A model generated the notes under the pieces. The model was not told where the DNA came from and did no database searches. It saw only the letters and a list, made by a program, of their open reading frames with translations. This document shows positions 8,330 through 51,671 of a DNA stretch of 64,000 nt, in pieces; position 1 is the first letter of the stretch, and every line of letters begins with the position of its first letter. A program made the translations under genes and the position numbers. This stretch comes from a virus (taxonomy: Duplodnaviria > Heunggongvirae > Uroviricota > Caudoviricetes), in the IMG/VR virus record IMGVR_UViG_3300046096_000179, positions 63,124 through 127,123 of that record. One strand, written 5' to 3'.

Positions 8330-8880
8330 CCTACAAATCCCCACCTCGATCAAAACTATACTACATAGCCATTGGCGCAAAGAATTCCATTCGAGCATTC
8401 TTTGCTCGTCTAGAGTATCATTGGAATGGTGGTTACAAATGCCATTGTTGCGGTACGCTGATTCCGATTCACTATCACCATATTGAATCTGAAGTCAACG
8501 GTGAACGTATCATCATCTCCAACAATTCCAAGCATCTTTACTGTGCATATTGTTTGGGTACAAAGATCGAGTCATATTTCCGATACTCTGAACAGTTGGC
8601 TCCACTCCATGTAAATGAATGTGATTGGGTGCATCGACCGGCAAAGACGATTCGCATCATCTGGGGCACCGATCCAATCGCAAAACAACTCGATCTGGAT
8701 GTCAGGTTTGGTGGGCGTTGGTGGAACGGACATAACGCATGTCAAGAAGCATTCGTCAGAGCATTGATTCATTCAGAAGTTTCTTACATGACAATCGTGT
8801 GGGTTCATGATAAAAAGTCAGGCAAAATGAAGATGATTGACCGCAATGGGATAAAGGTGGGTAGTGATGGTAGTTGGTGA
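8326..8880 (+). CDS. hypothetical Cys/His-rich protein
   Basis: 184 aa with several CxxC and HxH clusters; ATGA-coupled to the upstream gene. Confidence 0.5.
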   Translation: MTYKSPPRSKLYYIAIGAKNSIRAFFARLEYHWNGGYKCHCCGTLIPIHYHHIESEVNGERIIISNNSKHLYCAYCLGTKIESYFRYSEQLAPLHVNECDWVHRPAKTIRIIWGTDPIAKQLDLDVRFGGRWWNGHNACQEAFVRALIHSEVSYMTIVWVHDKKSGKMKMIDRNGIKVGSDGSW

Positions 8881-9052
8881 ACTACCAAAGATTGGCGGGT
8901 CAGCGAATTTCGCGTTTGTTGTTGTCACTACACAGAAGTCGGCCGCAATTCTATTCTATCGCAAACCGAAGATACACAATCTCATCTTTGATTTGATCGA
9001 TCGACCAATCACAAGAATAATGTGGATGGTCATTGACAATGCGCGTGTCTGA
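8864..9052 (+). CDS. DLP-leader family small protein (MMVVGELPKI...)
   Basis: N-terminal leader variant; its stop TGA sits inside the TCTGA of the next member's leader. Confidence 0.5.
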   Translation: MMVVGELPKIGGSANFAFVVVTTQKSAAILFYRKPKIHNLIFDLIDRPITRIMWMVIDNARV

Positions 9053-9254
9053 ACTCCCGGTAACTAAGATGCCGTATCGTGCAAAAGAACCGATGCCAAC
9101 ATTTGAACATCGGTTCTTTGTTTATCGCATAGCTTCCATACCCATAAACATTGATTGGATTGGTAATTTGACTATACCAATTGACACTGCTCTTGACATC
9201 CACATTCACGCTTTGATCGAAAGGCTATACAATGAAACCAGCATACTTCGGTGA
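9039..9254 (+). CDS. DLP-leader family small protein (MRVSELPV...)
   Basis: Leader atgcgcgtgtctgaactcccg; TTG-extended in the track as 9033. Confidence 0.5.
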   Translation: MRVSELPVTKMPYRAKEPMPTFEHRFFVYRIASIPINIDWIGNLTIPIDTALDIHIHALIERLYNETSILR

Positions 9255-18670: not shown

Positions 18671-18959
18671 TGCTGAAATTCTTAACATCAGCCAAGAAGA
18701 ATGTGCTGAGGTTATTGTGGCGATCTCCAAGATTCGCAGGTTTGGTCTGGATAGTGTTGATCCCAGAACAGACACCGGACAGACGAATCAAGATCATCTG
18801 GAGGAAGAAGTTGGAGACCTGATGGCAATGATTCGCCTGATGGAATTATCTGGTCTGATTCGGTTCGATAGGGTCGATACCGCAATGGAAGCCAAACTCA
18901 ACAAACTGAAGCTCTGGTCATCCATTGACAGGGAATTGCTGGATTATGCGAATAGCTGA
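18657..18959 (+). CDS. MazG-like nucleotide pyrophosphohydrolase (tentative)
   Basis: Small all-alpha protein with EExxEV...EEEVGDL acidic motifs. Confidence 0.4.
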   Translation: MNKSNAEILNISQEECAEVIVAISKIRRFGLDSVDPRTDTGQTNQDHLEEEVGDLMAMIRLMELSGLIRFDRVDTAMEAKLNKLKLWSSIDRELLDYANS

Positions 18960-19098
18960 CCTGCCAAAGATAACTAAACCACGGCGAGTGTTCAGTCGAA
19001 CAATATGGTATCCCGATATGCCATTCATCCAGACTTCTTTCATAATTGCTTGGCAAATCTCAGAGGTTCTTTCTGAAATCAACGATGGTTTTGAATGA
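18946..19098 (+). CDS. DLP-leader family small protein (MRIADLPKI...)
   Basis: Leader atgcgaatagctgacctgccaaagata; MazG-like stop TGA sits inside the leader. Confidence 0.45.
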   Translation: MRIADLPKITKPRRVFSRTIWYPDMPFIQTSFIIAWQISEVLSEINDGFE

Positions 19099-19249
19099 CT
19101 TACCGCGCATAAAGACTCCACACAAAAGAGTCTGGGGCGACATACTTTTTCTAACCAAAGGGTTTAGGTCTGAGTGGTACCAAGAAACAGGTGGTATGGT
19201 TTTGGATGTTGCTGAGGTGCTTGCTGAAATTTGCTATGATGTTGTCTGA
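19085..19249 (+). CDS. DLP-leader family small protein (MVLNDLPRI...)
   Basis: Leader variant. Confidence 0.45.
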   Translation: MVLNDLPRIKTPHKRVWGDILFLTKGFRSEWYQETGGMVLDVAEVLAEICYDVV

Positions 19250-19388
19250 CCTACCTAAGTTGAATGATACCAAACCGTTGTCATGCTTTCTTCTGATTAG
19301 ATTTGATCATGGGATTTACACGCATTTGAAGTTTGTTCGACAAGTGACATGGATGGCACGAAACATTGATGCTGCATTTGGATTATGA
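19236..19388 (+). CDS. DLP-leader family small protein (MMLSDLPKL...)
   Basis: Leader variant. Confidence 0.45.
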   Translation: MMLSDLPKLNDTKPLSCFLLIRFDHGIYTHLKFVRQVTWMARNIDAAFGL

Positions 19389-19573
19389 AGACTACTCACC
19401 TACCTAAGATCGACCCTGAGCAGTTTGAGCCACTGAATAAAAGTTGGTGGTCGCATAGATGGAGTGTATCCAACCCCATCATTCGTTTTCCGAGCATACT
19501 TGGGTTCTTCCTTGAACTCGCAAGAATGCGACAAACGATCCAAGACTCTATGGCTACAGTTAGAATTCCGTGA
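19385..19573 (+). CDS. DLP-leader family small protein (MKTTHLPKI...)
   Basis: Leader variant. Confidence 0.5.
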   Translation: MKTTHLPKIDPEQFEPLNKSWWSHRWSVSNPIIRFPSILGFFLELARMRQTIQDSMATVRIP

Positions 19574-21136: not shown

Positions 21137-21204
21137 GACGGCGCTTAGTTGAACCGAGTCACGGTTTGGGCGCCTCGACAACAGTGATGTTTGTCTAAAA
21201 TTGA

Positions 21205-21707: not shown

Positions 21708-21887
21708 ATGAAAAATACTGACTTGCCCACAATACAAGCCCACCATGGTCATGTATATTGGGATGATTTGTGGGTGGTTATTCGGAAAACCGAACGAGTT
21801 TTTGATGGTCAGTTTGGTACCACAATTGGTGCATACGTATATCAACATTTGTTTTTAAACGTCAATAATCAACTATGCGACAGCTAA
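21708..21887 (+). CDS. DLP-leader family (MKNTDLPTI...)
   Basis: First member of the main array; preceded by hairpin ctatgttaaattcaacatag and a TATAAT-like box. Confidence 0.5.
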   Translation: MKNTDLPTIQAHHGHVYWDDLWVVIRKTERVFDGQFGTTIGAYVYQHLFLNVNNQLCDS

Positions 21888-21914
21888 ATATAGTTCGGTG
21901 TTCTTTTTCATACC

Positions 21915-22079
21915 ATGAAAACATCTGACTTCCCAAAAATCATCAAGCCGCCAACGACCCAACGACTTCTATCCGATGTGATGCAATGTGTTTTCACTTG
22001 TCTTAATGGTAAAATGTTCGTCACGGGACAGATGATCAGAGTTCCAATCATGCGTACATTCGATAGCATCAATAAATGA
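21915..22079 (+). CDS. DLP-leader family (MKTSDFPKI...)
   Basis: Below the track threshold; coordinates approximate. Confidence 0.45.
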   Translation: MKTSDFPKIIKPPTTQRLLSDVMQCVFTCLNGKMFVTGQMIRVPIMRTFDSINK

Positions 22080-22273
22080 AACTCAGAGACTTACCGATGG
22101 TTCCCAACACGGTGCATGATGGTCTGAATGGTTATCGAGTCAGCACAGATGTTTCTATTGGTGGTGCATGGAGAGGATATTCTTCTGCTACTATGAGTAA
22201 CGACGGATGTTGTGCTTTCTTAGTTATTGATGAGACATTTGAAATGATTTTTGACGATTATGAAAACTACTGA
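22076..22273 (+). CDS. DLP-leader family (MKLRDLPMV...)
   Basis: aaATGAaac overlap with the upstream stop. Confidence 0.5.
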   Translation: MKLRDLPMVPNTVHDGLNGYRVSTDVSIGGAWRGYSSATMSNDGCCAFLVIDETFEMIFDDYENY

Positions 22274-22463
22274 CCTACCATTAAACAATCACATTGATGT
22301 GTTGAGCACCGATGATTTGTGGGTGGTTGTTGGAATTGTTAAAGGTGCCGTAGGGCTTGCCACCAAAAGGTTTGCCACCAAAAGGTTTTGGTTAGACCCG
22401 GTTTACTTCAAACTGGGATTGCCCGTTAGAAATCAAATTTTTAACTTGGCGTCAAAAGAATGA
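22260..22463 (+). CDS. DLP-leader family (MKTTDLPLN...)
   Basis: Leader atgaaaactactgacctacca. Confidence 0.5.
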   Translation: MKTTDLPLNNHIDVLSTDDLWVVVGIVKGAVGLATKRFATKRFWLDPVYFKLGLPVRNQIFNLASKE

Positions 22464-22639
22464 AGACTACTGACTTACCTTTACAATATCGGATTGATGT
22501 ACGGATTCGGTGGGGTGTTTTTTTGCGTGTTGAATACGCCGCAGAGGATGTCACCCAAACGTCTATGTTTGAGCCGGTTTACTTAAAACTGATATTGCCT
22601 GTTAGAACTCAAATTTTGCAGTTAGCTCCAAAAGAATGA
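22460..22639 (+). CDS. DLP-leader family (MKTTDLPLQ...); body paralogous to the previous member (PVYFKLGLPVRNQIFNLA vs PVYLKLILPVRTQILQLA)
   Basis: ATGA overlap. Confidence 0.45.
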   Translation: MKTTDLPLQYRIDVRIRWGVFLRVEYAAEDVTQTSMFEPVYLKLILPVRTQILQLAPKE

Positions 22640-22800
22640 AGACGAGTGAGCTACCTAAAATCAACAAGTCACCACCGATCTATTATCAGATGGTTGGATT
22701 CATAGTGACTGTTGTTTCGATGAATGAAACAGGCAAACTTCCAATGATTCTTGTTGGCGTCCATGAAAACGATTGGGTGGTGGCTGTCTTGAGTTGTTAA
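22636..22800 (+). CDS. DLP-leader family (MKTSELPKI...), hydrophobic body
   Basis: ATGA overlap; approximate end. Confidence 0.4.
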   Translation: MKTSELPKINKSPPIYYQMVGFIVTVVSMNETGKLPMILVGVHENDWVVAVLSC

Positions 22801-24291: not shown

Positions 24292-24858
24292 TCAACGCAT
24301 AGAAACGCGCTGTGACAAGCGGTAGACCCCAATGCATACCCTAGCATCAACCAATGTTAAACGACGGCCCCTAGGGGCGTTTAAAGCGCTAGAAATGACG
24401 TCTGGGTTCTGTGTAGGATTATCATACCCAGTTTTGTTTCGGTAGTTTTCCGCTTTCTTATCAAGAAGCTCTTGGCTCTTTGATGGATGGTCAACATCAT
24501 AGACGTTGATCATTGCGGCGCGGAATGCATCCGTCCCATATGGCGTTATACTGGTATTGTTGTTCATGTTTAGCCACTCAGATGAAGTGGCGCAATCATT
24601 CTCAACTAAGAACTGGGTTTCGTAGTCATGAACATCACCAACTTCGTCTTTGGTTTTGATACTGATGACTCGGAAAGCAGCAAGACCTTCTTCCTCAATG
24701 ATTTTGTGAACGACCTTGGAACTGGTCTGGTATCCACCCGGTTGCATGAACTCTGATGGGTGACAGCCTTTAGCGTAACGACAACCGGCATATCGTTTGC
24801 CAGAAGCAACATGCTGAATGATGTAAAAATAAGGGACGTAAATAGGTTTGCTGGACAT
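24292..24858 (-). CDS. GIY-YIG homing endonuclease, shortened paralogue
   Basis: PIYVPYFYIIQHVASGKRYAGCRYAKG; after one repeat unit the C-terminus reads into GC-rich non-homologous sequence. Confidence 0.7.
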   Translation of the reverse strand: MSSKPIYVPYFYIIQHVASGKRYAGCRYAKGCHPSEFMQPGGYQTSSKVVHKIIEEEGLAAFRVISIKTKDEVGDVHDYETQFLVENDCATSSEWLNMNNNTSITPYGTDAFRAAMINVYDVDHPSKSQELLDKKAENYRNKTGYDNPTQNPDVISSALNAPRGRRLTLVDARVCIGVYRLSQRVSMR

Positions 24859-25044
24859 GCAGACTCCTTGTTTGTTTTAGAAGATGTTTAGAGGTAGCAG
24901 AGACTGCGAATCTCGTGGCTACCAACTTTATTTAGGGTTTCTTGATTTTGATGATAAAAAGTTGCGTTGTGGCCTAAAAGTTGTGATACAATACAGGCAT
25001 CGGACGTTGATTCGATTCAAACCTAACCATGAAGGACTAACCAA

Positions 25045-25671
25045 ATGTCAAATGAACTCACCCCATCGCAAGCAGCACTCATCCCACAGTACGTTTCGGA
25101 ATATGTGGCACACGGTTTCTACACCAGTTCCGGTACCCGTGAAGATGATGAACACATCGCTCGTGCAACCGAGCGCGCATACAAGAACGCTATTTCCCGC
25201 AAGCGCCACGATTCCATCACTAAGGTTCCGATGGTCGTGGTTGGTTCCATGAAGCAAGTCGTTCACATGATGAAGCAAACCATTCAAGGTGATGCCGACG
25301 CAATCAAATCCACGATTCAATCTGCTCGTCACAATGGTCAATTCCAAGCAGCAACTGATGCTCGATTCATGTTTCACTTGGAAGTTCTTGGGGTGGGTGG
25401 GGACGCGCTTGAATGGCATTGCGTATCTCCTTTGTACCGCAAGAACGGTGGGGTGTTTTTATTTCCTGAAATTTGTTTCTGCGTTCGTCCACCGATCCGT
25501 TTTGATGATGACTCTGACGGCAATCCCGTTCCGATCTGGAATGAAGAATCTGCGCCGACTGTTTATACACCTCAGAATCCAACTGACATCAACGATGTCA
25601 CGAAATACTCCGTTGAAGACATCGAAGACCTCCCCAACACCGTTGTCATTCAGGGAAAGAGCTTCCTTTAA
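25045..25671 (+). CDS. hypothetical protein
   Basis: Driven by ttgtgatacaatacaggca cassette variant between the two GIY-YIG genes. Confidence 0.55.
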   Translation: MSNELTPSQAALIPQYVSEYVAHGFYTSSGTREDDEHIARATERAYKNAISRKRHDSITKVPMVVVGSMKQVVHMMKQTIQGDADAIKSTIQSARHNGQFQAATDARFMFHLEVLGVGGDALEWHCVSPLYRKNGGVFLFPEICFCVRPPIRFDDDSDGNPVPIWNEESAPTVYTPQNPTDINDVTKYSVEDIEDLPNTVVIQGKSFL

Positions 25672-26902
25672 GCACAAAGTTAACGGGAAGGGGTTTGCTA
25701 AACATTGATTGGACTACGTAATACGTTTTGTTAGTCAAAACATCAACATACCCTTCCCTGCCAAGCTTCCCACTCTTGATGCTGATGTATCTCCCTTCCC
25801 CATATGTTCGGTTAAGGGATTTCATCACGCCAATAAGGAATACTTCATCTACGGTATCCCACAGATATTCAAATCGACCAAAATCACCTCGTAATATTTC
25901 GTTGGTGATTTTGTCTTCTGTGTTTTTATGTCTTGATGTCCGTATGCGATCAATGATGATTGGTGAGTGACTGGCGTTTTCTACGCCATATCTTTCTCTC
26001 ATCGTATCTTTGGCCTTCTCTCTAACTATCGGACACAGCAGTGCGGTTTCAACGCCACGGCTTTCCATATTGGTTTGCCTACTCTTGGCTTGAATCTCGG
26101 GAGACTTCATTTGATGATCGACCCCATATCGATCCATCAATGTTGATGTAGCTTTTGCTCTAACCACGGGACATTGTAGTACACTCCCAAATCCTCGTCG
26201 TTCCATGTTGGTCTGTTTGGTCTTTTCCCGGATTTCTTGTGCCTGCTGTGGAAATTCCGTTCCATATCTCTCAGTCATGGTCTGTCGGAATCTATCATGC
26301 GATTCTGGATTATGCATTGGATTTTCGACTCCATATCTATCATTCATGGTCTGTCGAACGGTTGCTTTAACTTCTTTGGCTTGCATTGGGTGGTCAACTC
26401 CCCATCTCTCTTGGCATGTTTTCTTAGCCATTTCCATGACTTCAGGTAACTGCAACGTGCAATCAACTCCATGACGAGCCTGATTTGTCTGTCTGATGGA
26501 TTCTATAAATGCTGGATGATGGGAGACGTTTTCGACGTCATATCGGTCTCTTAGGATGTTCTTAAATTCTTCCGAACCAAATGCGGGGCGTTTGTTGTTG
26601 TGCATATTGAACCACTCTGATGAAGCAGCACAATTATTCTCAACCAAGAAATTTGTCTCGTAGTCATGGACATTGCCAATTTCATCTATGGTCTTAATTT
26701 CGACCACGACAAATGCATCAATGCCTTCTTCCTTGATGATTTTCTTAATCTTCTTGGAACTGGTTTTGTAACCATCTTCGGTCATGAACTCTGATGGATG
26801 ACAGCCTTTGGCAAAGCGACAACCGGCATACTTCTTTCCAGAAGCAACATGCTGAATGACGTAAAAGTAAGGGACGTGCGGATAAATAGGTTTGCTGGAC
26901 AT
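25646..26902 (-). CDS. GIY-YIG homing endonuclease with seven tandem ~33-aa repeats
   Basis: PIYPHVPYFYVIQHVASGKKYAGCRFAKG; repeats of the form ...R(Y/W)GV(E/D)(N/H)PM..PE(V/I)..K... Confidence 0.8.
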   Translation of the reverse strand: MSSKPIYPHVPYFYVIQHVASGKKYAGCRFAKGCHPSEFMTEDGYKTSSKKIKKIIKEEGIDAFVVVEIKTIDEIGNVHDYETNFLVENNCAASSEWFNMHNNKRPAFGSEEFKNILRDRYDVENVSHHPAFIESIRQTNQARHGVDCTLQLPEVMEMAKKTCQERWGVDHPMQAKEVKATVRQTMNDRYGVENPMHNPESHDRFRQTMTERYGTEFPQQAQEIREKTKQTNMERRGFGSVLQCPVVRAKATSTLMDRYGVDHQMKSPEIQAKSRQTNMESRGVETALLCPIVREKAKDTMRERYGVENASHSPIIIDRIRTSRHKNTEDKITNEILRGDFGRFEYLWDTVDEVFLIGVMKSLNRTYGEGRYISIKSGKLGREGYVDVLTNKTYYVVQSMFSKPLPVNFVLKGSSFPE

Positions 26903-27078
26903 GCAGACTCCTTGTTTGTGTTAAGAATGTTTAGAGGTAGTGGGAACGCCAATTCCGCGACTACCAACTTTATTTAGGGGTTCTGGATTTTTGATGATAA
27001 ACTGTGATACAATACATACATGAACAATCAACACTCAACCAACAATACTGGCGTCATCCCCGGTAAGTCTGAACTCTG

Positions 27079-27261
27079 ATGCAAATAGAAAATCTACCCA
27101 CGATCCAAGAATGCTATACATCCGTAAGTGTTGGGTTGTGGGTAGTTCTTCGAGAAACAATTTTCAGCATGTCGGACGCCAACACGGTAGACTCTTTGGA
27201 TGACCCGTTGTATGTTGCGGTTGCTAGTGACGTCGATTGGGTGTTTAATGAAAACTACTGA
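27079..27261 (+). CDS. DLP-leader family (MQIENLPTI...)
   Basis: Downstream of the aactgtgatacaatacatac cassette. Confidence 0.45.
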   Translation: MQIENLPTIQECYTSVSVGLWVVLRETIFSMSDANTVDSLDDPLYVAVASDVDWVFNENY

Positions 27262-27415
27262 CCTTCCTGTTTTGGCACCAATTGTCTCTGGTGTATTGAA
27301 GGCTGATGCGTGGCATCATATCATCTGGGTATCAATGACCTCTACACCATGGGATAATCTTGGGAAGAAGGTGCGCGCTTCTCTGATTAAATTGATGCCG
27401 TATGATATCTTCTAA
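27248..27415 (+). CDS. DLP-leader family (MKTTDLPVL...)
   Basis: Leader. Confidence 0.5.
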   Translation: MKTTDLPVLAPIVSGVLKADAWHHIIWVSMTSTPWDNLGKKVRASLIKLMPYDIF

Positions 27416-27584
27416 TCTTCCACAAATCAAACTGCCACACGCCATGAACTGGTATGTACATCAAATGGATGCCGCAACAAGCGTGATGATGTTGAAATCC
27501 ATCAAGATTTGGGATGCTGTATACCAACAAGTTGATTGGGCTGTCTCTGACCATTTGTGGAGATTGACCGATGAAAACATCTGA
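27402..27584 (+). CDS. DLP-leader family (MISSNLPQI...)
   Basis: Leader variant. Confidence 0.5.
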   Translation: MISSNLPQIKLPHAMNWYVHQMDAATSVMMLKSIKIWDAVYQQVDWAVSDHLWRLTDENI

Positions 27585-27753
27585 CCTGCCACAAATCAGA
27601 TCATCCTACGGTGAAGTCTTTGGCGTTGGATTATGGGCAGTTCTTAGAAAAGTTGCTTCTGAAACTGACCTGTATATTGCAGCAGAAGAACGACCATGTG
27701 TTGTTGATGTAAATGTTGATCGGATTTTGTGGAATATTTACTACTTGTTATGA
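27571..27753 (+). CDS. DLP-leader family (MKTSDLPQI...)
   Basis: Upstream stop lies in accgATGAaaacatcTGA. Confidence 0.5.
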   Translation: MKTSDLPQIRSSYGEVFGVGLWAVLRKVASETDLYIAAEERPCVVDVNVDRILWNIYYLL

Positions 27754-27827
27754 AAACATCTGAATTATCAAAAAATCCAACTAAAACCAAGTCCTCTGAA
27801 CTTGTCATGGAGAGTAATCATTGGTAA
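27750..27827 (+). CDS. DLP-leader family, very short (MKTSELSKNPTKTKSSELVMESNHW)
   Basis: Approximate coordinates; may be a decayed member. Confidence 0.3.
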   Translation: MKTSELSKNPTKTKSSELVMESNHW

Positions 27828-27913
27828 TTCCTTTCCGTGGGGATTGGCTATAATAAAAGGTATTGATGCGGATGACTCGGGGTGGCAAGTTCTGAAACGA
27901 TTGGTTGGTAAAA

Positions 27914-28033
27914 ATGAAAATCTCTGACATACCGAAAATTGACCATGTGTTGTATAATACATGCGCCGCTTCTTGGTATGCCGGTGATATGGACGGCGCA
28001 TCATACGAGATGGTAAAAATAATCAAGATTTGA
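27914..28033 (+). CDS. DLP-leader family (MKISDIPKI...)
   Basis: Approximate coordinates. Confidence 0.35.
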   Translation: MKISDIPKIDHVLYNTCAASWYAGDMDGASYEMVKIIKI

Positions 28034-28101
28034 AATTTTGGTTACCAGCAAGTGGATTGGGCTGTCTCCGAGCATCTGTGGTATATTAGAGTTGATTGAA
28101 T

Positions 28102-28266
28102 ATGAAAACATCTGACCTGCCGAAAATCCAAGTTGAGAGCCAGAGTATTTTGAGCGTGTCGTGGAAAGCAATCATACCATGTCTGCCGTGGTCGAACGAT
28201 CCGTCAAATATGCGGCCGGACGTTCATTGTCACCTACGTTGGTTGATTAAGCATGAAAACCTCTGA
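28102..28266 (+). CDS. DLP-leader family (MKTSDLPKIQVE...)
   Basis: Stops at the TGA inside the next member's TCTGAC. Confidence 0.45.
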   Translation: MKTSDLPKIQVESQSILSVSWKAIIPCLPWSNDPSNMRPDVHCHLRWLIKHENL

Positions 28267-28456
28267 CCTACAATACATACAGAACATAGATAATGGTTAC
28301 TTGGATGACGCACCGTCGGACACTTACTTTGCAGTAGTCGAAGACTCCACATTATTTGGATACCAATCCCCTTACCTATGGGACTTGGTTGACGCAATTG
28401 ACGATCCATTATTTAAAATCGAAATTCACATCTATGACACCTACCATGATCAATAA
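28253..28456 (+). CDS. DLP-leader family (MKTSDLQYI...)
   Basis: Leader. Confidence 0.5.
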   Translation: MKTSDLQYIQNIDNGYLDDAPSDTYFAVVEDSTLFGYQSPYLWDLVDAIDDPLFKIEIHIYDTYHDQ

Positions 28457-28943
28457 ACTGACTCCATATTTCACCCCACTAGGAATTGACGTCTCCAAGG
28501 TTCCATTCCATGACGGTTTTGCTGGCTCGATTTATGTCGGACAGTTTCCCTATGCAGGTAAGAATCGTCAAGGTGAACTGACATTCCTTGACTATCCAGT
28601 AGATGTCTTCTATCAACCGAATCCCAAGGTTGAACTGGGGCATTCCCATTACTTCTCGGTCTATACTCGTCATGGTCATTCCTATGTCAGCGATGCATCC
28701 TATGTCACTGACCTAAGGCTTAATGGCGTTGTTGACTCCACTGGCAATATCCTGTATGCTAGGTTCCAGCATGACTTCCGATATACCAATGACGGTAATG
28801 CCGGGGTTGATGGTGGTGGATGGATGAAAGATGGTGATGTCTGGAGTATGTGGGGTCGCACCATTGGTGATAAGGATGGAAACTTCCCCAAGATGGTTCT
28901 GCTCCGTGTTGTTGATGGAAAGCTGGTGCAGGATGAAACTTAA
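28434..28943 (+). CDS. hypothetical protein (about 169 aa) embedded in the array, without the leader
   Basis: Track ORF 28356..28943; first plausible ATG (MTPTMINKL) lies at the end of the preceding member. Confidence 0.45.
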   Translation: MTPTMINKLTPYFTPLGIDVSKVPFHDGFAGSIYVGQFPYAGKNRQGELTFLDYPVDVFYQPNPKVELGHSHYFSVYTRHGHSYVSDASYVTDLRLNGVVDSTGNILYARFQHDFRYTNDGNAGVDGGGWMKDGDVWSMWGRTIGDKDGNFPKMVLLRVVDGKLVQDET

Positions 28944-29131
28944 ACAGCTATCGGTCATTGAACCATCAATGTCGTTTGTCAACATCAAAAAAAGAGTTGA
29001 CTCCATCTCCGGTAGGAGAGGGTTTGATTATGTTTCAAGGTCTTACCTATGGGTTGACATGATCAACGCGGATTTTGGTAGAGAACTTTTTACGGCGGTT
29101 CATTCGGCATTCAGTGGGTGCGTCCGTGGAA

Positions 29132-29302
29132 TTGAGTGAACTGCCGAAGTCTCATCAGTTAGCGGCGAGATTTGATGTAATTAGTCGCCCACTCGCTGGC
29201 GGCATTTTAAGCGCGATCATGGAGAATGAGCATAATGTATGGCGATGGGTGCGTTATCCGGTGCAGCAAGTTCTTGAACGGGTAAATGATGAAATCTTCT
29301 GA
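29132..29302 (+). CDS. DLP-leader family, TTG-start variant ((M)SELPKSHQ...)
   Basis: ttgagtgaactgccgaag matches the minus-strand TTG variant at 50357. Confidence 0.4.
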   Translation: MSELPKSHQLAARFDVISRPLAGGILSAIMENEHNVWRWVRYPVQQVLERVNDEIF

Positions 29303-29483
29303 CCTACCGAAAATACCAATCCCAAGAACCGGGTGGAATGTCTGTTTTGATGCGCATGTTTCGATGAATGACGCATTGGATGAATCATCTGGGATTGAGG
29401 TGCAGTCCGAAGTGATTAACAAAATCGCGTTTCCGGTCTTGGGTATCATGCGCCGGATTTGTGCCAGTACACCGAGTTCTTGA
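29286..29483 (+). CDS. DLP-leader family (MMKSSDLPKI...)
   Basis: Leader. Confidence 0.5.
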   Translation: MMKSSDLPKIPIPRTGWNVCFDAHVSMNDALDESSGIEVQSEVINKIAFPVLGIMRRICASTPSS

Positions 29484-29491
29484 ACGAGTGA

Positions 29492-29692
29492 ATGATGAAA
29501 TCTTCTGACCTGCCAACCATTGCTGTCCCTATCACGAACTTCCATGTTGTTCATGATGTATCAATCCTGTTTGGTGATTTTCTTGGTTTCGCCGAGTACG
29601 AAACATTTGATAAAATCAGAACGCCTGTGATGAATTCTTTGATTCCAACACTTTTTTCCATGGAACTCGAATTTTTAAGTTATAAAATATAA
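29492..29692 (+). CDS. DLP-leader family (MMKSSDLPTI...)
   Basis: Leader. Confidence 0.5.
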   Translation: MMKSSDLPTIAVPITNFHVVHDVSILFGDFLGFAEYETFDKIRTPVMNSLIPTLFSMELEFLSYKI

Positions 29693-29694
29693 CC

Positions 29695-30129
29695 ATGAAC
29701 CAACCCTACATTCAAAATGTTTCACGTCAGGCTCTTGCAACCGGTCAGCACCTCAGACCCAGTGACAATACAATTCTGATTCAGATTGCCGACTGTATTC
29801 AGGGATGCCCTACTCCAACACCCAACAATACCTTCGTTGAAATCCATCAGTTCAACTTCATGGACTCTGAGGAAGATGACCCAATGTTCCCACCAGAGGC
29901 AAAGATCACCACAGAACAAGCCAAGGAAATTGTTGGCATCCTTCGGAATGCATTGGCTAAAAATCAGAACGTGATTGTCCATTGCAATGCCGGTCTTTGT
30001 CGGTCAGGTGCTGTTGCTGAGGTTGGTGTCATGATGGGATTCACGGATACCTTTGCCACTAGGATTCCAAACCTGATGGTCAAGAAGTATCTGATGCGAG
30101 AACTTGGCTGGCTTTATGAAGATCGATGA
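29695..30129 (+). CDS. Cys-based protein phosphatase (dual-specificity/PTP-like, CX5R)
   Basis: VHCNAGLCRSGAV active-site P-loop. Confidence 0.7.
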   Translation: MNQPYIQNVSRQALATGQHLRPSDNTILIQIADCIQGCPTPTPNNTFVEIHQFNFMDSEEDDPMFPPEAKITTEQAKEIVGILRNALAKNQNVIVHCNAGLCRSGAVAEVGVMMGFTDTFATRIPNLMVKKYLMRELGWLYEDR

Positions 30130-30268
30130 CTTACCAAAGATTCACTTGAGTGAATGCAAAGACCTTGCACATTTGATTCGACTCCCACATGGAACATCTT
30201 CAATTGTGATGACTGTCAGCATGCGATGGTCGTTTAAAATCAATCATGCTCTTGGGTTTCGGTTGTGA
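30116..30268 (+). CDS. DLP-leader family (MKIDDLPKI...)
   Basis: Overlaps the phosphatase stop; approximate. Confidence 0.4.
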   Translation: MKIDDLPKIHLSECKDLAHLIRLPHGTSSIVMTVSMRWSFKINHALGFRL

Positions 30269-30447
30269 AAACCTATGAACTACCAAAAATCAATGCAAAA
30301 GACTGGAGCGTCGTAGAATTCTCCGTTACCTTTCTTGGAGGTCATGTTGGAGTTTCTGACTCTGGAGCGAAGCTAAAGACTTACAAAATCACCAATGAAG
30401 TTCACCAAAATTTCGGCGAAATTGTTAGAAACCTGTGGATTCTGTGA
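30265..30447 (+). CDS. DLP-leader family (GTG start; (M)KTYELPKI...)
   Basis: Leader; last member of the array. Confidence 0.45.
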   Translation: MKTYELPKINAKDWSVVEFSVTFLGGHVGVSDSGAKLKTYKITNEVHQNFGEIVRNLWIL

Positions 30448-30459
30448 TACAATTCAGTC

Positions 30460-30639
30460 ATGTTATCAAATTACCAAGTCCAATACAAAGTCGTTGCCAA
30501 GCCATGCTATGTTGGAGACCAACACCAACGCTTCTCCATCAAGGAAATGATTGTGCATACCAGCAGCAAAGATGCTGCCATGTCATACTTTCTTGACAAG
30601 AAAATCCAGCACATTGAAGCATCCGTCAGAAAAATCTGA
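30460..30639 (+). CDS. hypothetical small protein (59 aa)
   Basis: Immediately after the cassette ctgtgatacaattcagtcATG; below the track threshold. Confidence 0.35.
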   Translation: MLSNYQVQYKVVAKPCYVGDQHQRFSIKEMIVHTSSKDAAMSYFLDKKIQHIEASVRKI

Positions 30640-32938: not shown

Positions 32939-33751
32939 ATGATCATGAACATCCTAATCGGCTCCAGAGCCATGAACTATTGGACTGGCGAACCATCCAA
33001 GGATTCTGCAGATTGGGATGTCATTTCGGTCGATCCAATTGATGGAACCGAACACCATCCGGTTGACTTCCTGAATAACCACAGGTTCGTCGATTACGCA
33101 TCTGAGCATACGGTTGCATTCAATGGTAATATCCTGCACGTATGCAATCCAGTGGGTCTGGCGATTATCAAACGCTCCCATCTGCACCGAGGCCTGAGTT
33201 TCGCCAAGCACATCACCCACTACCACAGGAAGCTGATGCCGCTTGTTGGTAAGTTCAGTCCAGAGGATATGCCGATATTGGGTGAGCGAACTCAGTTGAC
33301 CAAGGAACAGTTCCCATTCAACCACCCAAAGTTGGATGTGACGGTTTCCGAGTTCTTCGACGACTTCGTGATCAAGAAATATGACCATGATGCAATCCAT
33401 CGGGTTGTAGCATTCAATGATGCTCCAATGTACACCAAGATGCAACCCAACCCAGAGATGGCATGGTGTGCCAAGGATATGTGGGATGAGTTCAGCGACA
33501 TGGAGAAACGCCAGTGTGTGGCAGAGGAAGCTCTGGTTATTTCAATTGAGCGATTCTTGGTTCCGAGCAATTGGAAGAAGTCTTATCGACTGTCATACAT
33601 GAAGTCCTTGGAGAAGGTCTGCACGACACTCTGCTCTGGGTGGTTCCGTGATTATGCGATTGACAACTACCCAGCAATCGCTGACTTGTTCGATTCTGCG
33701 GATTTTGGTGAATTTAAAGAAAAGATTTTGACTACAGTTCTGGAACTGTGA
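32939..33751 (+). CDS. hypothetical protein, possible nucleotidyltransferase fold
   Basis: LIGSRAMNYWTGEPSKDSADWDVI fits hG[GS]x(n)DhDh loosely. Confidence 0.35.
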   Translation: MIMNILIGSRAMNYWTGEPSKDSADWDVISVDPIDGTEHHPVDFLNNHRFVDYASEHTVAFNGNILHVCNPVGLAIIKRSHLHRGLSFAKHITHYHRKLMPLVGKFSPEDMPILGERTQLTKEQFPFNHPKLDVTVSEFFDDFVIKKYDHDAIHRVVAFNDAPMYTKMQPNPEMAWCAKDMWDEFSDMEKRQCVAEEALVISIERFLVPSNWKKSYRLSYMKSLEKVCTTLCSGWFRDYAIDNYPAIADLFDSADFGEFKEKILTTVLEL

Positions 33752-33791
33752 TATAATAAGAACCATCAACTCCACTACAAGGAACTACATC
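33731..33791 (+). promoter_or_regulatory. promoter-leader cassette
   Basis: actacagttctggaactgtgatataataagaaccatcaactccactacaaggaactacatcATG. Confidence 0.6.
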
Positions 33792-34250
33792 ATGACCAAC
33801 CGTAACTATGAATTTGTAACAGACGACACCATCGTTATTAATGGGGTGACATTGACTCGTATTCGGGCGATTAAATATATACCCCACCATAGGGCAACAG
33901 ATGGTGAGCTTGGTGGCTATATCGAAAAATATGAAAATTTAACAGAAAACTCATGGGTTTCTGGTAATGCCCGTGTTTCTGGTAATGCATGTGTCTATGG
34001 CGATGCCCGTGTTTCTGGTAATGATAATGTCAAATCGACATCAGATTACATCACCATCGGTCCAGCAAAATCTTCTGGTCGGTACATAACCGCATTTGTT
34101 GATTATAAAATCGGAGTTAAGATTGTGACGGGTGATTTTACTGGTTCTATTAATGAATTCAAGTCAGCTATTGAATCCACACACCAAAACAATGAGCAGA
34201 ATTTGAAACAATATCGCGCATTTGTTTTCTTAATTGAAGCCTCATTCTGA
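33792..34250 (+). CDS. hypothetical protein with tandem SGNARV hexapeptide repeats
   Basis: WVSGNARVSGNACVYGDARVSGND. Confidence 0.55.
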   Translation: MTNRNYEFVTDDTIVINGVTLTRIRAIKYIPHHRATDGELGGYIEKYENLTENSWVSGNARVSGNACVYGDARVSGNDNVKSTSDYITIGPAKSSGRYITAFVDYKIGVKIVTGDFTGSINEFKSAIESTHQNNEQNLKQYRAFVFLIEASF

Positions 34251-34300
34251 TTTTCTGTGATATAATAAGAACCATCAACTCCACTACAAGGAACTACATC
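34247..34300 (+). promoter_or_regulatory. promoter-leader cassette
   Basis: tgattttctgtgatataataagaaccatcaactccactacaaggaactacatcATG. Confidence 0.6.
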
Positions 34301-36466: not shown

Positions 36467-36475
36467 AATAAAATT

Positions 36476-48419: not shown

Positions 48420-49745
48420 CCTAACCGTCTTTAGCTGTTAGGAGGAATTGCGAAAGGGTAAATAGTGACATGGAACAACTCAAAGCATTCAAATATAGAA
48501 TCTATCCGACAGCAGATCAAATCAATCGGTTGTCACGGTTCTTTGGTGCAAAGCGTTGGGTCTATAATCACTTCTTGAAGTCTAACACTGAACGCTACAA
48601 AAATCAAGAGAAGCATCTATCTAATTTTGATTGTAACAAAGAAATCACATTCCTCAAGAAAAATGCTGATACATCTTGGTTGAAAGATGTTGACGATTGG
48701 GTCTTGAAACATGCTTCAGAGGACTTGGCAACAGCCTACAAAAACTTCTTTGCTTCTATTACTGGTAAGCGCAAGGGACCGAAAGTTGAACTCCCGACGT
48801 TCAAGAAGAAGTCAAACAGACAATCATACCGGACTCGCGGCGTGAAGGTTGATTTTGAAAATGGCACATTCACTGTGCCGAAAATCAAAAACATACCATG
48901 CAAGTTCCATCGACATTTCCTTGGAACTATCAAGAACGCAACCATCTCCAAAACTCCTGATGGGAAGTATTTCGTTTCATTCTTGGTTGATGCCAACGTC
49001 GCATTGCTGCCACAAACAGAGCGCGAAGTTGGCATTGACTTTGGGATTAAATCATTGGCGGTTCTATCCACCGGACATGAAATTCAGCCATTGAACACAC
49101 AGCTTGAGAAAATCAATCGAGCTATCAAACGTGCTCAGAGAATCCTTGCACGAAAAACAAAGGGTTCGACGAACAGAGAGAAGCAACGAGTATTACTGGC
49201 TAAATTATTTGCCCGGAAGACTCGAATACGCGAACACTATTATCACGAGATTTCGAGTTTTTTGGTCAAGAACTTTGATGCAATTTACTTGGAATCACTG
49301 AATATCAAAGGGATGATGAAGAACAGGAAACTGTCCAGAGCAATCCAAGAATGCTCGTGGTTTTCGCTGATCTCAAAAATATCATACAAATCCAACTTCT
49401 ACGGTAAGACCTTTCACCAGATTTCCAGATGGTTCCCATCATCCAAGACTTGTTCTTGTTGTGGGTTCAAACTGGACAAGTTAAGCCTTGACGTTCGTGA
49501 ATGGTCGTGCCAATCTTGTGGAACACATCATGATCGTGACCTAAACGCTGCCGTGAATATCCTATACCAAGGGCAGATGGATTTGTATGAACAAAAACAA
49601 CCGCAGGAAACAGGCGGTTTGGAACTAAAAATTCCATATTCCTTGCAGAAACATACCACTAAAATCGAGAGATCAGCGGAAGAAATTGCCGTTGTTGGTA
49701 TGTGGAGCAGGAAAGCCTAACAGTCTTTAGCTGTTAGGTAGTTTA
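48420..49745 (+). mobile_element. IS200/IS605-family insertion sequence carrying only tnpB (IS1341-like)
   Basis: Terminal palindromes cctaaccgtctttagctgttagg (48420..48442) and cctaacagtctttagctgttagg (49716..49738) flank an intact tnpB; same ends found on the MITE at 39144..39371. Confidence 0.7.
48470..49720 (+). CDS. tnpB: TnpB (OrfB_IS605 RNA-guided RuvC-like nuclease)
   Basis: N-terminal AFKYRIYPT...FG..RWVYN; RuvC-I GIDFGIK; RuvC-II YLESLN; zinc finger CSCCGFK...CQSCG; RuvC-III HHDRDLNAAVNI. Confidence 0.85.
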   Translation: MEQLKAFKYRIYPTADQINRLSRFFGAKRWVYNHFLKSNTERYKNQEKHLSNFDCNKEITFLKKNADTSWLKDVDDWVLKHASEDLATAYKNFFASITGKRKGPKVELPTFKKKSNRQSYRTRGVKVDFENGTFTVPKIKNIPCKFHRHFLGTIKNATISKTPDGKYFVSFLVDANVALLPQTEREVGIDFGIKSLAVLSTGHEIQPLNTQLEKINRAIKRAQRILARKTKGSTNREKQRVLLAKLFARKTRIREHYYHEISSFLVKNFDAIYLESLNIKGMMKNRKLSRAIQECSWFSLISKISYKSNFYGKTFHQISRWFPSSKTCSCCGFKLDKLSLDVREWSCQSCGTHHDRDLNAAVNILYQGQMDLYEQKQPQETGGLELKIPYSLQKHTTKIERSAEEIAVVGMWSRKA

Positions 49746-49897
49746 CTTTTGATGTTGTTTAGAGATTCATAGATGTCATCATACATTTTGCTACATTCTC
49801 GAATGAAGAAGTAGACTGTCGGCGGTGGTCTACCTACACGAAACCCCAATCGGAATGGCTTGACCCATCGACTACCGATTCTTGGTAGATCATTCAC
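49727..49897 (-). CDS. DLP-leader family (GTG start (M)NDLPRI...) ending ...KLPNS-stop inside the IS right-end palindrome
   Basis: Stop TAA lies in ctacctaacagcTAAagactgttagg (reverse complement of 49716..49745). Confidence 0.4.
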   Translation of the reverse strand: MNDLPRIGSRWVKPFRLGFRVGRPPPTVYFFIRECSKMYDDIYESLNNIKSKLPNS

Positions 49898-50043
49898 TCG
49901 CATTTGGTTGACCTTAATATTGACTCGATTTTGTTTTGCATGTCGTGCAAATCCTCACAGTAGCTTGGATAAGCAATCCTGTTGTCTATCTCAACTAGAA
50001 CGTTAACATAAACATGAATCTTAGGTAATTCAGAGGTCTTCAT
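49894..50043 (-). CDS. DLP-leader family (MKTSELPKIHVY...)
   Basis: ATGAAGACCTCTGA overlap with the upstream stop. Confidence 0.45.
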   Translation of the reverse strand: MKTSELPKIHVYVNVLVEIDNRIAYPSYCEDLHDMQNKIESILRSTKCE

Positions 50044-50194
50044 TGATTTTAACCAAGTTGACAGTTGACTCGTTGATACCAGCCCTTGCTACAGCACAAC
50101 CTCCCGGCGGTAACGGATAAGGCCACCACCATTGAATGAACAATAGCAATATACTATCGTGTTCGTGAATCTTTGGAAGGTCAGAAATTCTCAT
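50030..50194 (-). CDS. DLP-leader family (MRISDLPKI...)
   Basis: Internal start at M54 of track ORF 50030..50353. Confidence 0.45.
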   Translation of the reverse strand: MRISDLPKIHEHDSILLLFIQWWWPYPLPPGGCAVARAGINESTVNLVKINEDL

Positions 50195-50204
50195 TCGATT
50201 CGAT

Positions 50205-50357
50205 CTACGTTGAGACTGTATGGTTTGAGCCAACGAAATGTTCCATGATTCCAAAGAAAGTGGCTCGGAAATAAAGAATATTTCCACTACCACATACCTC
50301 TCCCATGACTTTAAATCTTGCCCAACCGGTATGACCGATCTTTGGTAGTTCACTCAA
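50205..50357 (-). CDS. DLP-leader family, TTG-start variant ((M)SELPKIG...)
   Basis: ttgagtgaactaccaaagatcgg, same as the plus-strand variant at 29132. Confidence 0.35.
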   Translation of the reverse strand: MSELPKIGHTGWARFKVMGEVCGSGNILYFRATFFGIMEHFVGSNHTVST

Positions 50358-50517
50358 TTTCACAATGCTTCGTCAAGTTGATTTTGGAATCCATCATCCC
50401 ACCCAATGCAAGTTTAAACATTGATATTCCGCCAATGTAGATGGTATACCCGATTCCGTGCTTTATATCCAAGGAAATACCATCTATGTGAATCTTTGGT
50501 ATTTCAGAAGTCTTCAT
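50350..50517 (-). CDS. DLP-leader family (MKTSEIPKI...)
   Basis: aaaATGAagacttctgaaatacc; ATGA overlap with the cupin gene stop. Confidence 0.45.
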   Translation of the reverse strand: MKTSEIPKIHIDGISLDIKHGIGYTIYIGGISMFKLALGGMMDSKINLTKHCEIE

Positions 50518-51038
50518 TTTTGTTTTGGAACATCAAACACCAGAGTCAGTCTATCCACGTCAGACACATTCTTGGCGCTATGGGGCTTCTTGTTGTCAAA
50601 CCAGAAGAAAGTCCCCGGCCTGATTATACGCGATTCTCCATCCACTGTATATTCATAATCCCCCTGAATGGACAGATGGTATCTATCCCGAGTCAGATAG
50701 TATGCGCCATCATCAATATGGGTAGACACAGCACCGCCGGGAGGCAGACGAAAGAATGCACACCGGGAGATGTTCTTCAGACCATACCGAGCCCAGAATG
50801 CATGCACCGATGGGAACAGTTTATATGCCCGTGTATTGGCCTGAAGTTCAGAGTCCTTGATGTTATCTCCGGGATTCTGGATAGCGCCCATGATCAGAGG
50901 CAGGAAACCGGGTGGGTTCTTATCACCACCAATGTTCTGCATCTGACTGACCATGCTCCACATAGAGGAATTCTGCTCAAGTTGAATCAGGATGTCCTGA
51001 ATCGGCTCTTGCATGGATATGATGCGAAAATTATTCAT
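50514..51038 (-). CDS. cupin-fold protein, possibly an Asp/Asn beta-hydroxylase-like oxygenase (tentative)
   Basis: RLPPGGAVSTHIDDGAYYL...KPHSAKN suggests an HxD...H metal site. Confidence 0.4.
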   Translation of the reverse strand: MNNFRIISMQEPIQDILIQLEQNSSMWSMVSQMQNIGGDKNPPGFLPLIMGAIQNPGDNIKDSELQANTRAYKLFPSVHAFWARYGLKNISRCAFFRLPPGGAVSTHIDDGAYYLTRDRYHLSIQGDYEYTVDGESRIIRPGTFFWFDNKKPHSAKNVSDVDRLTLVFDVPKQK

Positions 51039-51063
51039 TTGATTGGTGGCTTTACTAAGTTTA

Positions 51064-51228
51064 TCACAGAGAATCGCCCAATGCTGCTAACTGAAGCATA
51101 ATTGCTTTACCACCAAGGAGTTCTTTGGCTGCTATGCAATAGATGATGGTATTTTCAGAAAATGTAAACTTACATTCAAAAATGTCTTGGATGTGATAAT
51201 TGTTTGATGGCAGGTCACTCACTCGCAT
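51064..51228 (-). CDS. DLP-leader family (MRVSDLPSN...)
   Basis: Internal start M33 of track ORF 51064..51324. Confidence 0.45.
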   Translation of the reverse strand: MRVSDLPSNNYHIQDIFECKFTFSENTIIYCIAAKELLGGKAIMLQLAALGDSL

Positions 51229-51389
51229 TGGATTCAAGCTCTTCAATTCGATTTGCTGCTTCCTCCAGCAGTGAAGCCAACCGATCCGACTCTCCATTCT
51301 GGACAGACCGGCGACCAACAGCATTCTTACGAATTTCGGCTCGGATTCTTAGCTTCTGAACAAGAGATTGCGTATCAAATGGTGGGTAA

Positions 51390-51671
51390 TCACGACCAAC
51401 CATACTTTGCCTTCAGTTGAACGTAGGTTTTCCGATCAATCACTTCCTGCAAAAGATACCGTTGTGTATACTCAGTCATTTCTTCTGGCGTCATGTCTCG
51501 CTCACCACGAAAAGAAACCAATCCATGTTCAACATCATCAACCAACACGTTAGTCAATCCTTTATAACACATTTCATTCTTCACCGAAATGAAATTGTCA
51601 ATCGTTGCTGAGATGTCAGCACCAATTTCGATGTAGACGGTTTTGTAGTTACTGATTTTTGGATAGTTCAT
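51390..51671 (-). CDS. hypothetical protein
   Basis: 93 aa. Confidence 0.5.
   Translation of the reverse strand: MNYPKISNYKTVYIEIGADISATIDNFISVKNEMCYKGLTNVLVDDVEHGLVSFRGERDMTPEEMTEYTQRYLLQEVIDRKTYVQLKAKYGWS

Follow-up and report, generated by a model that had tools for sequence, protein, structure and literature searches.

Among the spacings of adjacent prokaryotic genes, only -4, -1 and -8 are generally enriched (2025 review, PMC12548453), and experiments in which the stop codon was moved upstream revealed that translational coupling drops steeply with distance (PMC10666635). In T4, a leader of about 10 N-terminal residues, the capsid targeting sequence (CTS), is carried by otherwise diverse internal proteins and has been proposed to serve the loading of diverse proteins (PMC3012670, PMC9026906); in IPIII it reads MKTYQEFIAE (PMC8442874). 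In the variable regions of T4-type genomes, promoterearly stem-loop elements (PeSLs) form repeats at gene boundaries and mark the edges of indels and replacements among close relatives (2010, PMC2839356; Comeau et al. 2014, PMC4122927). Here we analyzed a stretch of 64,000 nucleotides from a virus of the Caudoviricetes (IMG/VR record IMGVR_UViG_3300046096_000179, positions 63,124 to 127,123; hereafter the window), in which about 33 paralogous small genes, mostly of 50-70 residues, stand head to tail in five arrays and share a nine-codon leader that usually also contains, out of frame, the stop codon of the gene upstream.

Like overlap-coupled genes, the members of this family are co-directional, their upstream stops lie only a few nucleotides from the next start, the downstream starts lack a Shine–Dalgarno (SD) sequence of their own and lie in structured RNA, and seven junctions are of the classical ATGA/GTGA type. 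However, while described overlaps have spacings of -4, -1 or -8 (PMC12548453, PMC10666635), the spacing in this family is mainly -14 (19/31 junctions, with only 7/31 at -4), which is unusual given that only the three short spacings are generally enriched. Furthermore, the stop sits in a conserved coding motif that belongs to the downstream gene and defines the family, and it is inherited and shuffled with the family, and the chain consists of a dozen or more consecutive paralogues, not of the subunits of one complex. As in hidden out-of-frame stops and dual-coding viral overlaps, one stretch is under two frames and a synonymous site is conserved via the other frame; whereas such overlaps are usually single and long, the stretch here is 14 nucleotides long and repeated about 30 times as a module. 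The leaders also resemble PeSLs as short gene-boundary repeats that mark rearrangement edges (a swapped gene body in contig L002, a four-gene indel in L006 and a changed gene order in L019). PeSLs, however, are non-coding and consist of a promoter and a terminator between genes with separate transcription, whereas the leader is coding, carries neither promoter nor terminator and would preserve frame and translational coupling after an exchange. What is PeSL-like in this phage is a separate repeated cassette of promoter and 5' untranslated region (5'UTR) elsewhere in the window.

The Gene Family and Its Leader

The leader has the consensus M-K-T-S-[D/E]-L-P-K-I, encoded as ATG AAA ACN TCT GAC CTN CCN AAA ATY. 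Family alignments revealed good conservation in these first nine residues only, with L6 and P7 near-invariant, and the leader pattern at the DNA level was matched 11 times in the window (0.03 expected). Membership was decided by a peptide-pattern search that was relaxed stepwise and yielded 33 genes; two doubtful members (51403 and 56196) and one degenerate member (28933) were noted as well. When relatives of the window are included, there are 54 distinct leaders, 10 of which start with GTG. Frame 0 of the leader encodes the conserved N-terminal peptide, and the same stretch holds the stop of the upstream gene.

The coding scores of these small open reading frames (ORFs) are low (3-10), and the gene list for the window, which we built ourselves from codon usage, is approximate, so the true starts might lie elsewhere and the overlaps might be unreal. 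Such an annotation artefact is highly improbable, since peptide conservation starts exactly at codon 1, where only ATG and GTG occur, the median distance to an upstream in-frame stop is 7 codons, and the overlaps have identical coordinates in the gene calls of public records. Moreover, the ratio of nonsynonymous to synonymous substitution rates (dN/dS) between orthologues is 0.27-0.74 for family genes and 0.08 for the phosphatase gene embedded in one of the arrays. The purifying selection seen in the family, together with the agreeing public gene calls, indicates that the family genes are real. In-frame stops just upstream of the ATG showed no enrichment (within 5 codons in 12/33 genes, against 29% under the null).

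Position of the Upstream Stop

Stop positions were tabulated with the A of the start codon as 1 for the 33 leader-bearing genes, two of which are the first of their array, and 31 junctions. At 19 junctions the upstream gene ends at +12 to +14 (T/GA, once T/AA), which gives an overlap of 14 nucleotides; the count is 17 if the doubtful members 51403 and 56196 are left out. The stop lies at +2 to +4 (ATGA or GTGA, 4-nucleotide overlap) at seven further junctions and at +8 in one, three stops lie before the ATG (-29, -13 and -12), and the junction of 28102, which stands behind a broken gene, falls into no class. The stop is therefore located within the first 14 nucleotides of the leader, at +2, +8 or +12, at 27/31 junctions. 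As a control, the 91 other same-strand pairs of the window were analyzed, of which 18 allow an ATGA junction and 5 a +12 junction. Among these five are two further family members (8867 and 9039) and the possible member 51403, so that at most 3 of about 89 non-family pairs are able to have the +12 geometry, against 19/31 in the family. An earlier note, made on this DNA from its letters only, had stated that most upstream members terminate within the leader of the next gene, and the tabulation bears this out. Its three examples were also exact, namely the junction at 27571, the ORF 29126(29075)..29302 with its TGA (29300-29302) in leader 29289, and 28102..28266 ending in leader 28253.

Use of the +12 stop extends to leaders whose codons 2-4 are wholly different (MVVGELPKI, MRIADLPKI, MVLNDLPRI, MMLSDLPKL and MRVSDLPSN), and the same architecture prevails in the related metagenomic contigs L002, L006, L014, L016, L018 and L019. 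In the window, the TAG at 50205-50207 is a recent nonsense mutation, and the relative L018 keeps the +12 junction at this place.

The frame of the upstream gene lags that of the downstream gene by one base, so a ribosome shifting by +1 at the stop would continue in the frame of the downstream gene. Many junctions read UGA C, which is a weak termination context, and a programmed frameshift of the prfB kind could then produce fusion proteins instead of separate small proteins. The codons before the stop (AUC, UAC, CUC, UUC, GUC and others), however, do not re-pair at +1 as CUU does in prfB, no SD-like stimulator lies upstream, and an invariant ATG or GTG at leader position 1 would be needless for a fusion. 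On the codons preceding the stop and the lack of SD enrichment we rejected programmed frameshifting, which we consider extremely improbable.

Selection on the Embedded Stop

Any ORF that enters the leader in the -1 frame must end at T/GA, so junction counts alone are no proof of selection. The third base of codon 4, however, is T in 31/33 window leaders, while 11.3 would be expected from the codon usage of the window (Poisson-binomial p ~6e-14, a value that treats members as independent and, like the junction counts, overstates independence because the members are paralogous). The wobble positions of leader codons 2, 3 and 5-9 are as expected from codon usage. Codon 4 ends in T in 50/54 distinct leaders, and its third-base entropy is 0.44 bit, compared with 1.35-1.96 bit at the other wobbles. 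The residue that codon 4 encodes is variable, with an amino-acid entropy of 2.0 bit and about nine or 10 amino acids (S, T, N, R, A, G, D, Y and E in the window), so that the T is found in nine kinds of NNT codon (TCT, ACT, AGT, AAT, GGT, GCT, GAT, TAT and CGT). In addition, TGA has been switched to TAA twice, each time with a change of D5 to N and with the stop retained. One switch is in leader 27402 (TCT AAT) and the other is seen between orthologous phosphatase/leader junctions (GAT GAC in window leader 30116, AGT AAC in L006 at 3450). Since neighbouring wobble sites vary freely, there has been enough time for the codon-4 site to change. Only the leaders of 22076, 27079 and 19385 lack a +12 stop, and in all three cases the upstream neighbour has no need of one.

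The invariant T-G-A could instead be another nucleic-acid signal, such as a site for an mRNA regulator or endonuclease or a DNA target for recombination or homing, with its use as a stop being incidental. This would fit the leaders in which the +12 triplet is kept though unused, including one in which the orthologous codon 4 differs (TAT and TCT, window 30265 and L006 3605), and the two GIY-YIG homing-endonuclease genes that adjoin array D. A signal of this kind would not be expected to turn twice from TGA into TAA with the stop preserved and the sequence changed, nor to be missing from just those three leaders whose upstream genes have no need of a stop. Furthermore, the flanking wobbles vary without any extended nucleotide motif, and a comparison with Rfam gave tRNA as the sole match and none for the leader or the family. 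We regard this explanation as very unlikely. From the wobble pattern and the stop switches we conclude that the embedded stop is under purifying selection at the nucleotide level, so that the leader is constrained both as nucleic acid and as peptide. The earlier note had proposed this double constraint, and the codon-4 counts, the entropy and the TGA/TAA switches all agree with it.

Start Sites and Probable Translational Coupling

To compare start sites, a pairing of -4.5 kcal/mol or stronger was counted as an SD sequence, and other ATG genes of at least 80 residues as well as random positions were used for comparison. An SD sequence precedes 6/31 family starts, 34/68 starts of other genes and 15% of random positions (Fisher p = 0.004). 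From -12 to +12, family starts have a predicted mean unpaired probability of 0.457, compared with 0.552 at other starts and 0.431 at random positions; they are therefore less accessible than other starts (p = 3e-4) and indistinguishable from random positions. A promoter scan within the arrays revealed no recurrent promoter-like sites, and no recurrent terminator was found at the leaders. The first genes of operons in this phage have a conserved TTGACT, a spacer of 17-18 nucleotides, TGTGATACAAT, and a 5'UTR with AAGGAA and CATCATG, and family genes are without this cassette. The probable promoter of array D (26993..27013, plus strand), which was found by direct reading and was not listed by the consensus scan, has an extended -10 (TGTGATACAAT) identical to that of the repeated cassette. 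A conserved hairpin at 27579-27601 occurs in one copy only and was treated as chance.

With neither SD nor open structure, with some GTG starts and with a stop near the start, the family genes are best explained by translational coupling. A ribosome would end the upstream gene 11 nucleotides past the next start codon, which it would cover while terminating, and would then re-initiate there and/or unfold the start for initiation; in this way as many as about 20 cistrons could be coupled in translation behind one promoter. The earlier note took each junction to be a site of termination and re-initiation. The features of the starts make this plausible for those junctions whose stop lies in the leader, while at 4/31 junctions it does not, and the re-initiation step is itself a reading of the sequence.

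The junctions could also be a by-product of tandem duplication and compaction. An ancestral 14-nucleotide overlap would have been copied, each gene would be initiated independently and without SD on an A-rich start, no coupling would take place, and the stop would be kept only because its loss adds a junk tail to the upstream protein. All members are indeed paralogous, and junction regions are visibly duplicated (29258-29308 and 29464-29514, covering -31 to +20, are 86% identical, and 22373-22480 and 22549-22656 are 79% identical). After loss of the +12 stop the next stop in frame is often only 3-10 codons further on, so that the cost is perhaps small, and phage genomes are generally compact, with 18/91 of the other pairs here being ATGA. 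However, other genes of this phage have SD and open structure while family starts have neither, and a GTG start that has no SD would support very little independent initiation. The retention of T over nine codons and through deeply diverged leaders, together with the switches from TGA to TAA, also exceeds what a weakly deleterious tail predicts. Overall, we consider an origin as a mere by-product unlikely.

Rearrangements Bounded by Leaders

Gene content and order in the arrays were compared between the window and related contigs. Identity between the window and L002 is 99.6% as far as +20 of leader 27914, where unalignable bodies begin, and alignment resumes at 95.8% from 28252, one base before leader 28253. 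In L006 and L016, a C-terminus and leader similar to 27402 are joined directly to a body similar to 28253, so that in L006 a four-gene indel lies between two leaders; a crossover between leaders 27571 and 28253 would be expected to give such a joint. In L019 (2061-2639) the order is 27571-like, 27402-like and 28253-like, which places the 27571-like gene before the 27402-like one, unlike in the window. Within the arrays, 15/17 downstream ends of homology blocks lie 0-35 nucleotides after a leader start. The earlier note had suggested that the leader could act as a portable recombination cassette, and this is partly supported: the differences from L002, L006 and L019 are bounded by leaders, and the leader thus fits a cassette as a pattern, while the mechanism, with a crossover within the leader itself, is a proposed one whose exact points are left unproven by shared leaders and survivorship. 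If two leaders were joined by recombination, both reading frame and coupling would be preserved.

Over a larger range, L006 (1-6416) has a block matching window 8421-11854 after the block matching 24548-30636, which is the reverse of the window order.

Weighing the Evidence

Taken together, we consider it fairly probable that a stop-bearing coding leader, coupling by re-initiation and/or unfolding, selection on the stop and leader-edged rearrangement jointly explain the arrays. Several points weigh against this explanation. Four of the 31 window junctions have no stop in the leader, at least one of them owing to a recent nonsense mutation (TAG 50205-50207). The +12 stop is kept in about 11 leaders although the upstream gene makes no use of it, so selection for the needs of the upstream gene is insufficient and either recent junction turnover or selection for interchangeability is required; turnover probably explains these stops in part, as the derived TAG of 50363 suggests, and interchangeability may account for others. 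Part of the junction and wobble pattern was inherited through tandem duplication. The difference in SD is only a trend by rank test (p = 0.09), coupling is deduced from sequence alone, and a 14-nucleotide overlap needs a backward move of 11 nucleotides; in the literature -4 and -1 are better documented, and comparable data for -14 were not found. As for the rearrangements, leaders are the only sequence common to all paralogues, so that BLAST blocks necessarily run through them, and survivorship favours rearrangements that keep whole genes. The upstream ends of homology blocks also lie mostly 50-90 nucleotides before the leader and not inside it, which makes the conserved module a leader together with the C-terminal third of the gene before it.

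Composition of the Arrays

Array A (8867..9254, plus strand) consists of two genes with divergent leaders, 8867-9052 (MVVGELPKI) and 9039-9254 (MRVSELPVT), both with +12 junctions. Array B (18946..19573, plus strand) has four genes with divergent leaders, namely 18946-19098 (MRIADLPKI), 19085-19249 (MVLNDLPRI), 19236-19388 (MMLSDLPKL) and 19385-19573 (MKTTHLPKI), and its junctions are in order +12, +12, +12 and +2. Beside it lies the non-family gene 18657 (18657-18959, MNKSNAEIL), with an upstream TAA at +12. The six genes of array C (21708..22800, plus strand) are 21708-21887, 21915-22079, 22076-22273, 22260-22463, 22460-22639 and 22636-22800, with junctions of -29, +2, +12, +2 and +2 in order.

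Array D (27079-30447, plus strand) begins with 27079..27261 (60 residues, MQIENLPTI), whose own leader is without a +12 stop (GAA AAT) and whose stop is at +12 of 27248. The next gene, 27248..27415 (55 residues, MKTTDLPVL), thus has an upstream stop at +12 and itself ends with the TAA at +12 of 27402. This TAA, not TGA, is embedded in the leader of 27402..27584 (60 residues, MISSNLPQI; TCT AAT), and the gene itself stops at TGA 27582-27584 within the leader starting at 27571. Gene 27571..27753 (60 residues, MKTSDLPQI; upstream stop at +12) has its stop in the ATGA of 27750.

The two following genes are broken in the window strain and in contig L001, which is 100% identical, and intact in L002, which is 99.6% identical upstream. 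In 27750..27927, one additional base in a run of A ends the leader ORF after 25 codons (27827); the shifted remainder (27802..27927) still stops at +12 of 27914, and the intact 61-residue form is L002 6349-6534. In 27914..28099 (MKISDIPKI), an in-frame TGA (28031-28033) takes the place of a Trp codon of the paralogues (TGG to TGA); the remnant frame ends at TGA 28097-28099, and its counterpart in L002 is an intact gene of 81 residues with a different body. Behind them lies 28102..28266 (54 residues, MKTSDLPKIQVE...HENL), whose stop TGA (28264-28266) forms nucleotides 12-14 of leader 28253. Gene 28253..28456 (67 residues, MKTSDLQYI...; leader 28253-28279, holding the stop of 28102) has the orthologues P0003-P0005, P0008 and P0009, and its own TAA (28454-28456) is at +9 of the next gene, the non-family gene 28446 (28446-28943), with an 11-nucleotide overlap.

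The degenerate member 28933..29139 (68 residues, MKLKQLSVI) has the TAA of an upstream 165-residue gene at +9 and its own stop at +12 of 29126. Gene 29126..29302 (GTG start, 58 residues, VELSELPKS), which is also a gene call of the Joint Genome Institute (JGI; L001 6448-6624), has the upstream stop at +12 and its own at +12 of 29289. Gene 29289..29483 (64 residues, MKSSDLPKI) is an exception whose stop lies 13 nucleotides before the next leader, and in 29495..29692 (65 residues, MKSSDLPTI) the +12 TGA is present and not used by the upstream gene. The non-family gene 29695..30129, similar to dual-specificity phosphatases, stands inside the array and has its stop (TGA 30127-30129) at nucleotides 12-14 of leader 30116. 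The array is completed by 30116..30268 (50 residues, MKIDDLPKI, codons 4-5 GAT GAC), which stops in the GTGA of 30265, and by the last member 30265..30447 (GTG start, 60 residues, VKTYELPKI).

Array E (49727..51228, minus strand) consists of 51228-51064, 50517-50350, 50363-50205, 50194-50030, 50043-49894 and 49903-49727, and its junctions are in order +12, +2, +12, -12, +12 and +8. The GTG-started gene 50363-50205 ends at the derived TAG (50205-50207) 12 nucleotides ahead of the next ATG. A possible distant member, 51215..51403 (minus strand, 62 residues, MVGRDYPPF), has an upstream stop at +12 and its own stop at +12 of 51228.

The Encoded Proteins

Scans of ten members against Pfam and PHROGs gave no match at E <= 0.01, and a profile search of 1.84 billion representative proteins obtained 13 matches, almost all of this phage lineage. 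One of the proteins examined, P0011, is an unrelated metagenomic protein of 77 residues with four tandem copies of MVTSDLPKLGLG, which are leader-like and probably a chance match. AlphaFold2 on the family alignment gave no usable fold (mean predicted local distance difference test score 60, predicted template modelling score 0.24), and no described family of this kind was found in the literature. The segment right after the leader (residues ~8-25) is hypervariable even among orthologues, for example between window 28253 and L006 1793, while the C-terminal third and the next leader are conserved between orthologues. The N-proximal body may be under diversifying selection, and the fast evolution of orthologues is in keeping with accessory, perhaps host-directed proteins.

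As a hypothesis from analogy, the T4 CTS would be the closest functional counterpart of the leader peptide. In both cases diverse small proteins of a T4-like phage share about 10 N-terminal residues, and some leaders read MKTYEL... against MKTYQEF... in T4. However, only 7/31 members have a gp21-type (L/I)-x-E cleavage motif among their first 25 residues, and family isoelectric points are mixed (4.1 to 10.2), unlike the basic CTS proteins. Furthermore, there are about 33 members of 50-70 residues, their arrays are apparently driven by sigma-70, and they are known here from genes alone. Membership in the CTS class is not supported, given the rarity of the cleavage motif and the lack of a consistently basic charge, and the relation is kept as a hypothesis.

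Source Phage and Neighbouring Genes

Small genes are found at high density in the window. Its other genes encode a nicotinamide phosphoribosyltransferase, a SegE-like GIY-YIG endonuclease with DUF7487, a DnaB/gp41-like helicase, and TnpB-like, Band-7 and dual-specificity-phosphatase-like proteins. The helicase shares about 50% identity with the 'DNA primase/helicase' of T4-like cyanophages, and a neighbouring gene for 326 residues (13429-14409) matches nicotinamide mononucleotide (NMN) adenylyltransferase/NUDIX genes of Acidovorax phage ACP17 and large Vibrio phages. Since the gp41-like helicase and the NadM/NUDIX-like gene alone put the phage near T4-like viruses, its source is taken to be an uncultured, distant T4-like phage. 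A megablast search of the locus and a tblastn search with the 606-residue neighbour against GenBank phages gave no match, and no GenBank phage is a near relative at the DNA level. Near-identical or related contigs are present in several JGI metagenomes, and the lineage occurs in the JGI samples 3300046312, 3300046313 and 3300046328, among others. Scanning IMG/VR for the leader pattern and searching it for phosphatase-based loci gave no matches. A metagenome scan for the leader pattern had seven matches, among them L015, which is without a family gene, and L011 and L012 (GC 17-27%), which were dismissed as chance look-alikes.

The window has a single tRNA gene, a tRNA-Met (CAT) at 36475-36549 (plus strand). 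TAG is the stop of 3/129 predicted genes and of 0/75 non-family genes of at least 100 residues (TGA 46, TAA 29), which looks like avoidance rather than recoding. Recoding of TGA or TAG was rejected, as conserved long genes are open under table 11, suppressor tRNAs are absent and the TAG-ended ORFs are without coding extension.

Array D is preceded by a gene for a SegE-like GIY-YIG endonuclease of 418 residues (25646-26902, minus strand), which lies in an insertion (25660-27052) absent from L006, L016, L017 and L019. In these four contigs, a 208-residue gene (window 25045-25671) meets the first family gene via a TGATG overlap. In the window, the insertion separates the two and brings a promoter-like -10 (27003-27013), and a 19-codon ORF (27020-27079) ends in TGATG on the start of family gene 27079. 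Its paralogue is located at 24292-24858, and the two endonuclease genes have in common a repeat of about 410 nucleotides (24557-24958 and 26595-27001) that is 79% identical. Similarly, an IS605 OrfB/TnpB-like gene (48470-49720, plus strand; region 48402-49747) adjoins the minus-strand array E. The positions matching window 49747 and 48402 are adjacent in L014, where the TnpB-like gene is absent, which indicates a recent insertion or deletion.

The repeated promoter and 5'UTR cassette, ATTGACTACAG...CTGTGATACAATAGAACCATC...AAGGAAC.ACATCATG, combines a -35 box, an extended -10, an SD sequence and a fixed start context and is present in at least 11 copies. Copies lie on the plus strand at ~9754-9822, ~10493-10560, 19554-19610, 21197-21269, 33746-33795, 34254-34307 and 35821-35890, and on the minus strand at 47795-47856, 52026-52114, 54448-54496, 55835-55884 and 56489-56530. 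L006 is without the segment of about 1 kb that lies between the copies at 9754 and 10493 in the window, as expected for exchange between cassettes.

Implications

Translational coupling through overlaps and shuffling through cassettes are each already known; what is new is their combination, namely a family-defining N-terminal motif with a selected out-of-frame stop, a spacing of -14, about 30 copies and shuffling borders. The invariant synonymous T represents a textbook-quality case of selection acting on a stop in another frame. As one junction is replicated about 30 times, the family offers a natural test bed for the distance and efficiency of backward re-initiation by bacterial ribosomes, and natural variants are at hand in TGA/TAA stops, ATG/GTG starts, -14/-4 spacing and broken upstream genes. 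If coupling is true, the breaks in 27750 and 27914 should leave the genes that follow uncoupled, and the window strain and L002 thus form a natural experiment.

A more far-reaching idea, which we hold to be distinctly unlikely, is that the leader is a three-in-one mobile module, serving as an RNA element for coupling, a DNA homology patch for in-frame exchange and a protein targeting tag for more than 30 small effectors. If so, the tag, as a CTS analogue or as a handle for a host partner, would send a rapidly diversifying arsenal to one destination, and the arrays would be a plug-and-play system for evolving injected or host-directed proteins. With the leader peptide as a targeting tag, the family would represent a large new set of phage effectors. 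More generally, the arrays suggest how a fast-evolving accessory gene family may be duplicated, deleted and permuted without loss of expression.

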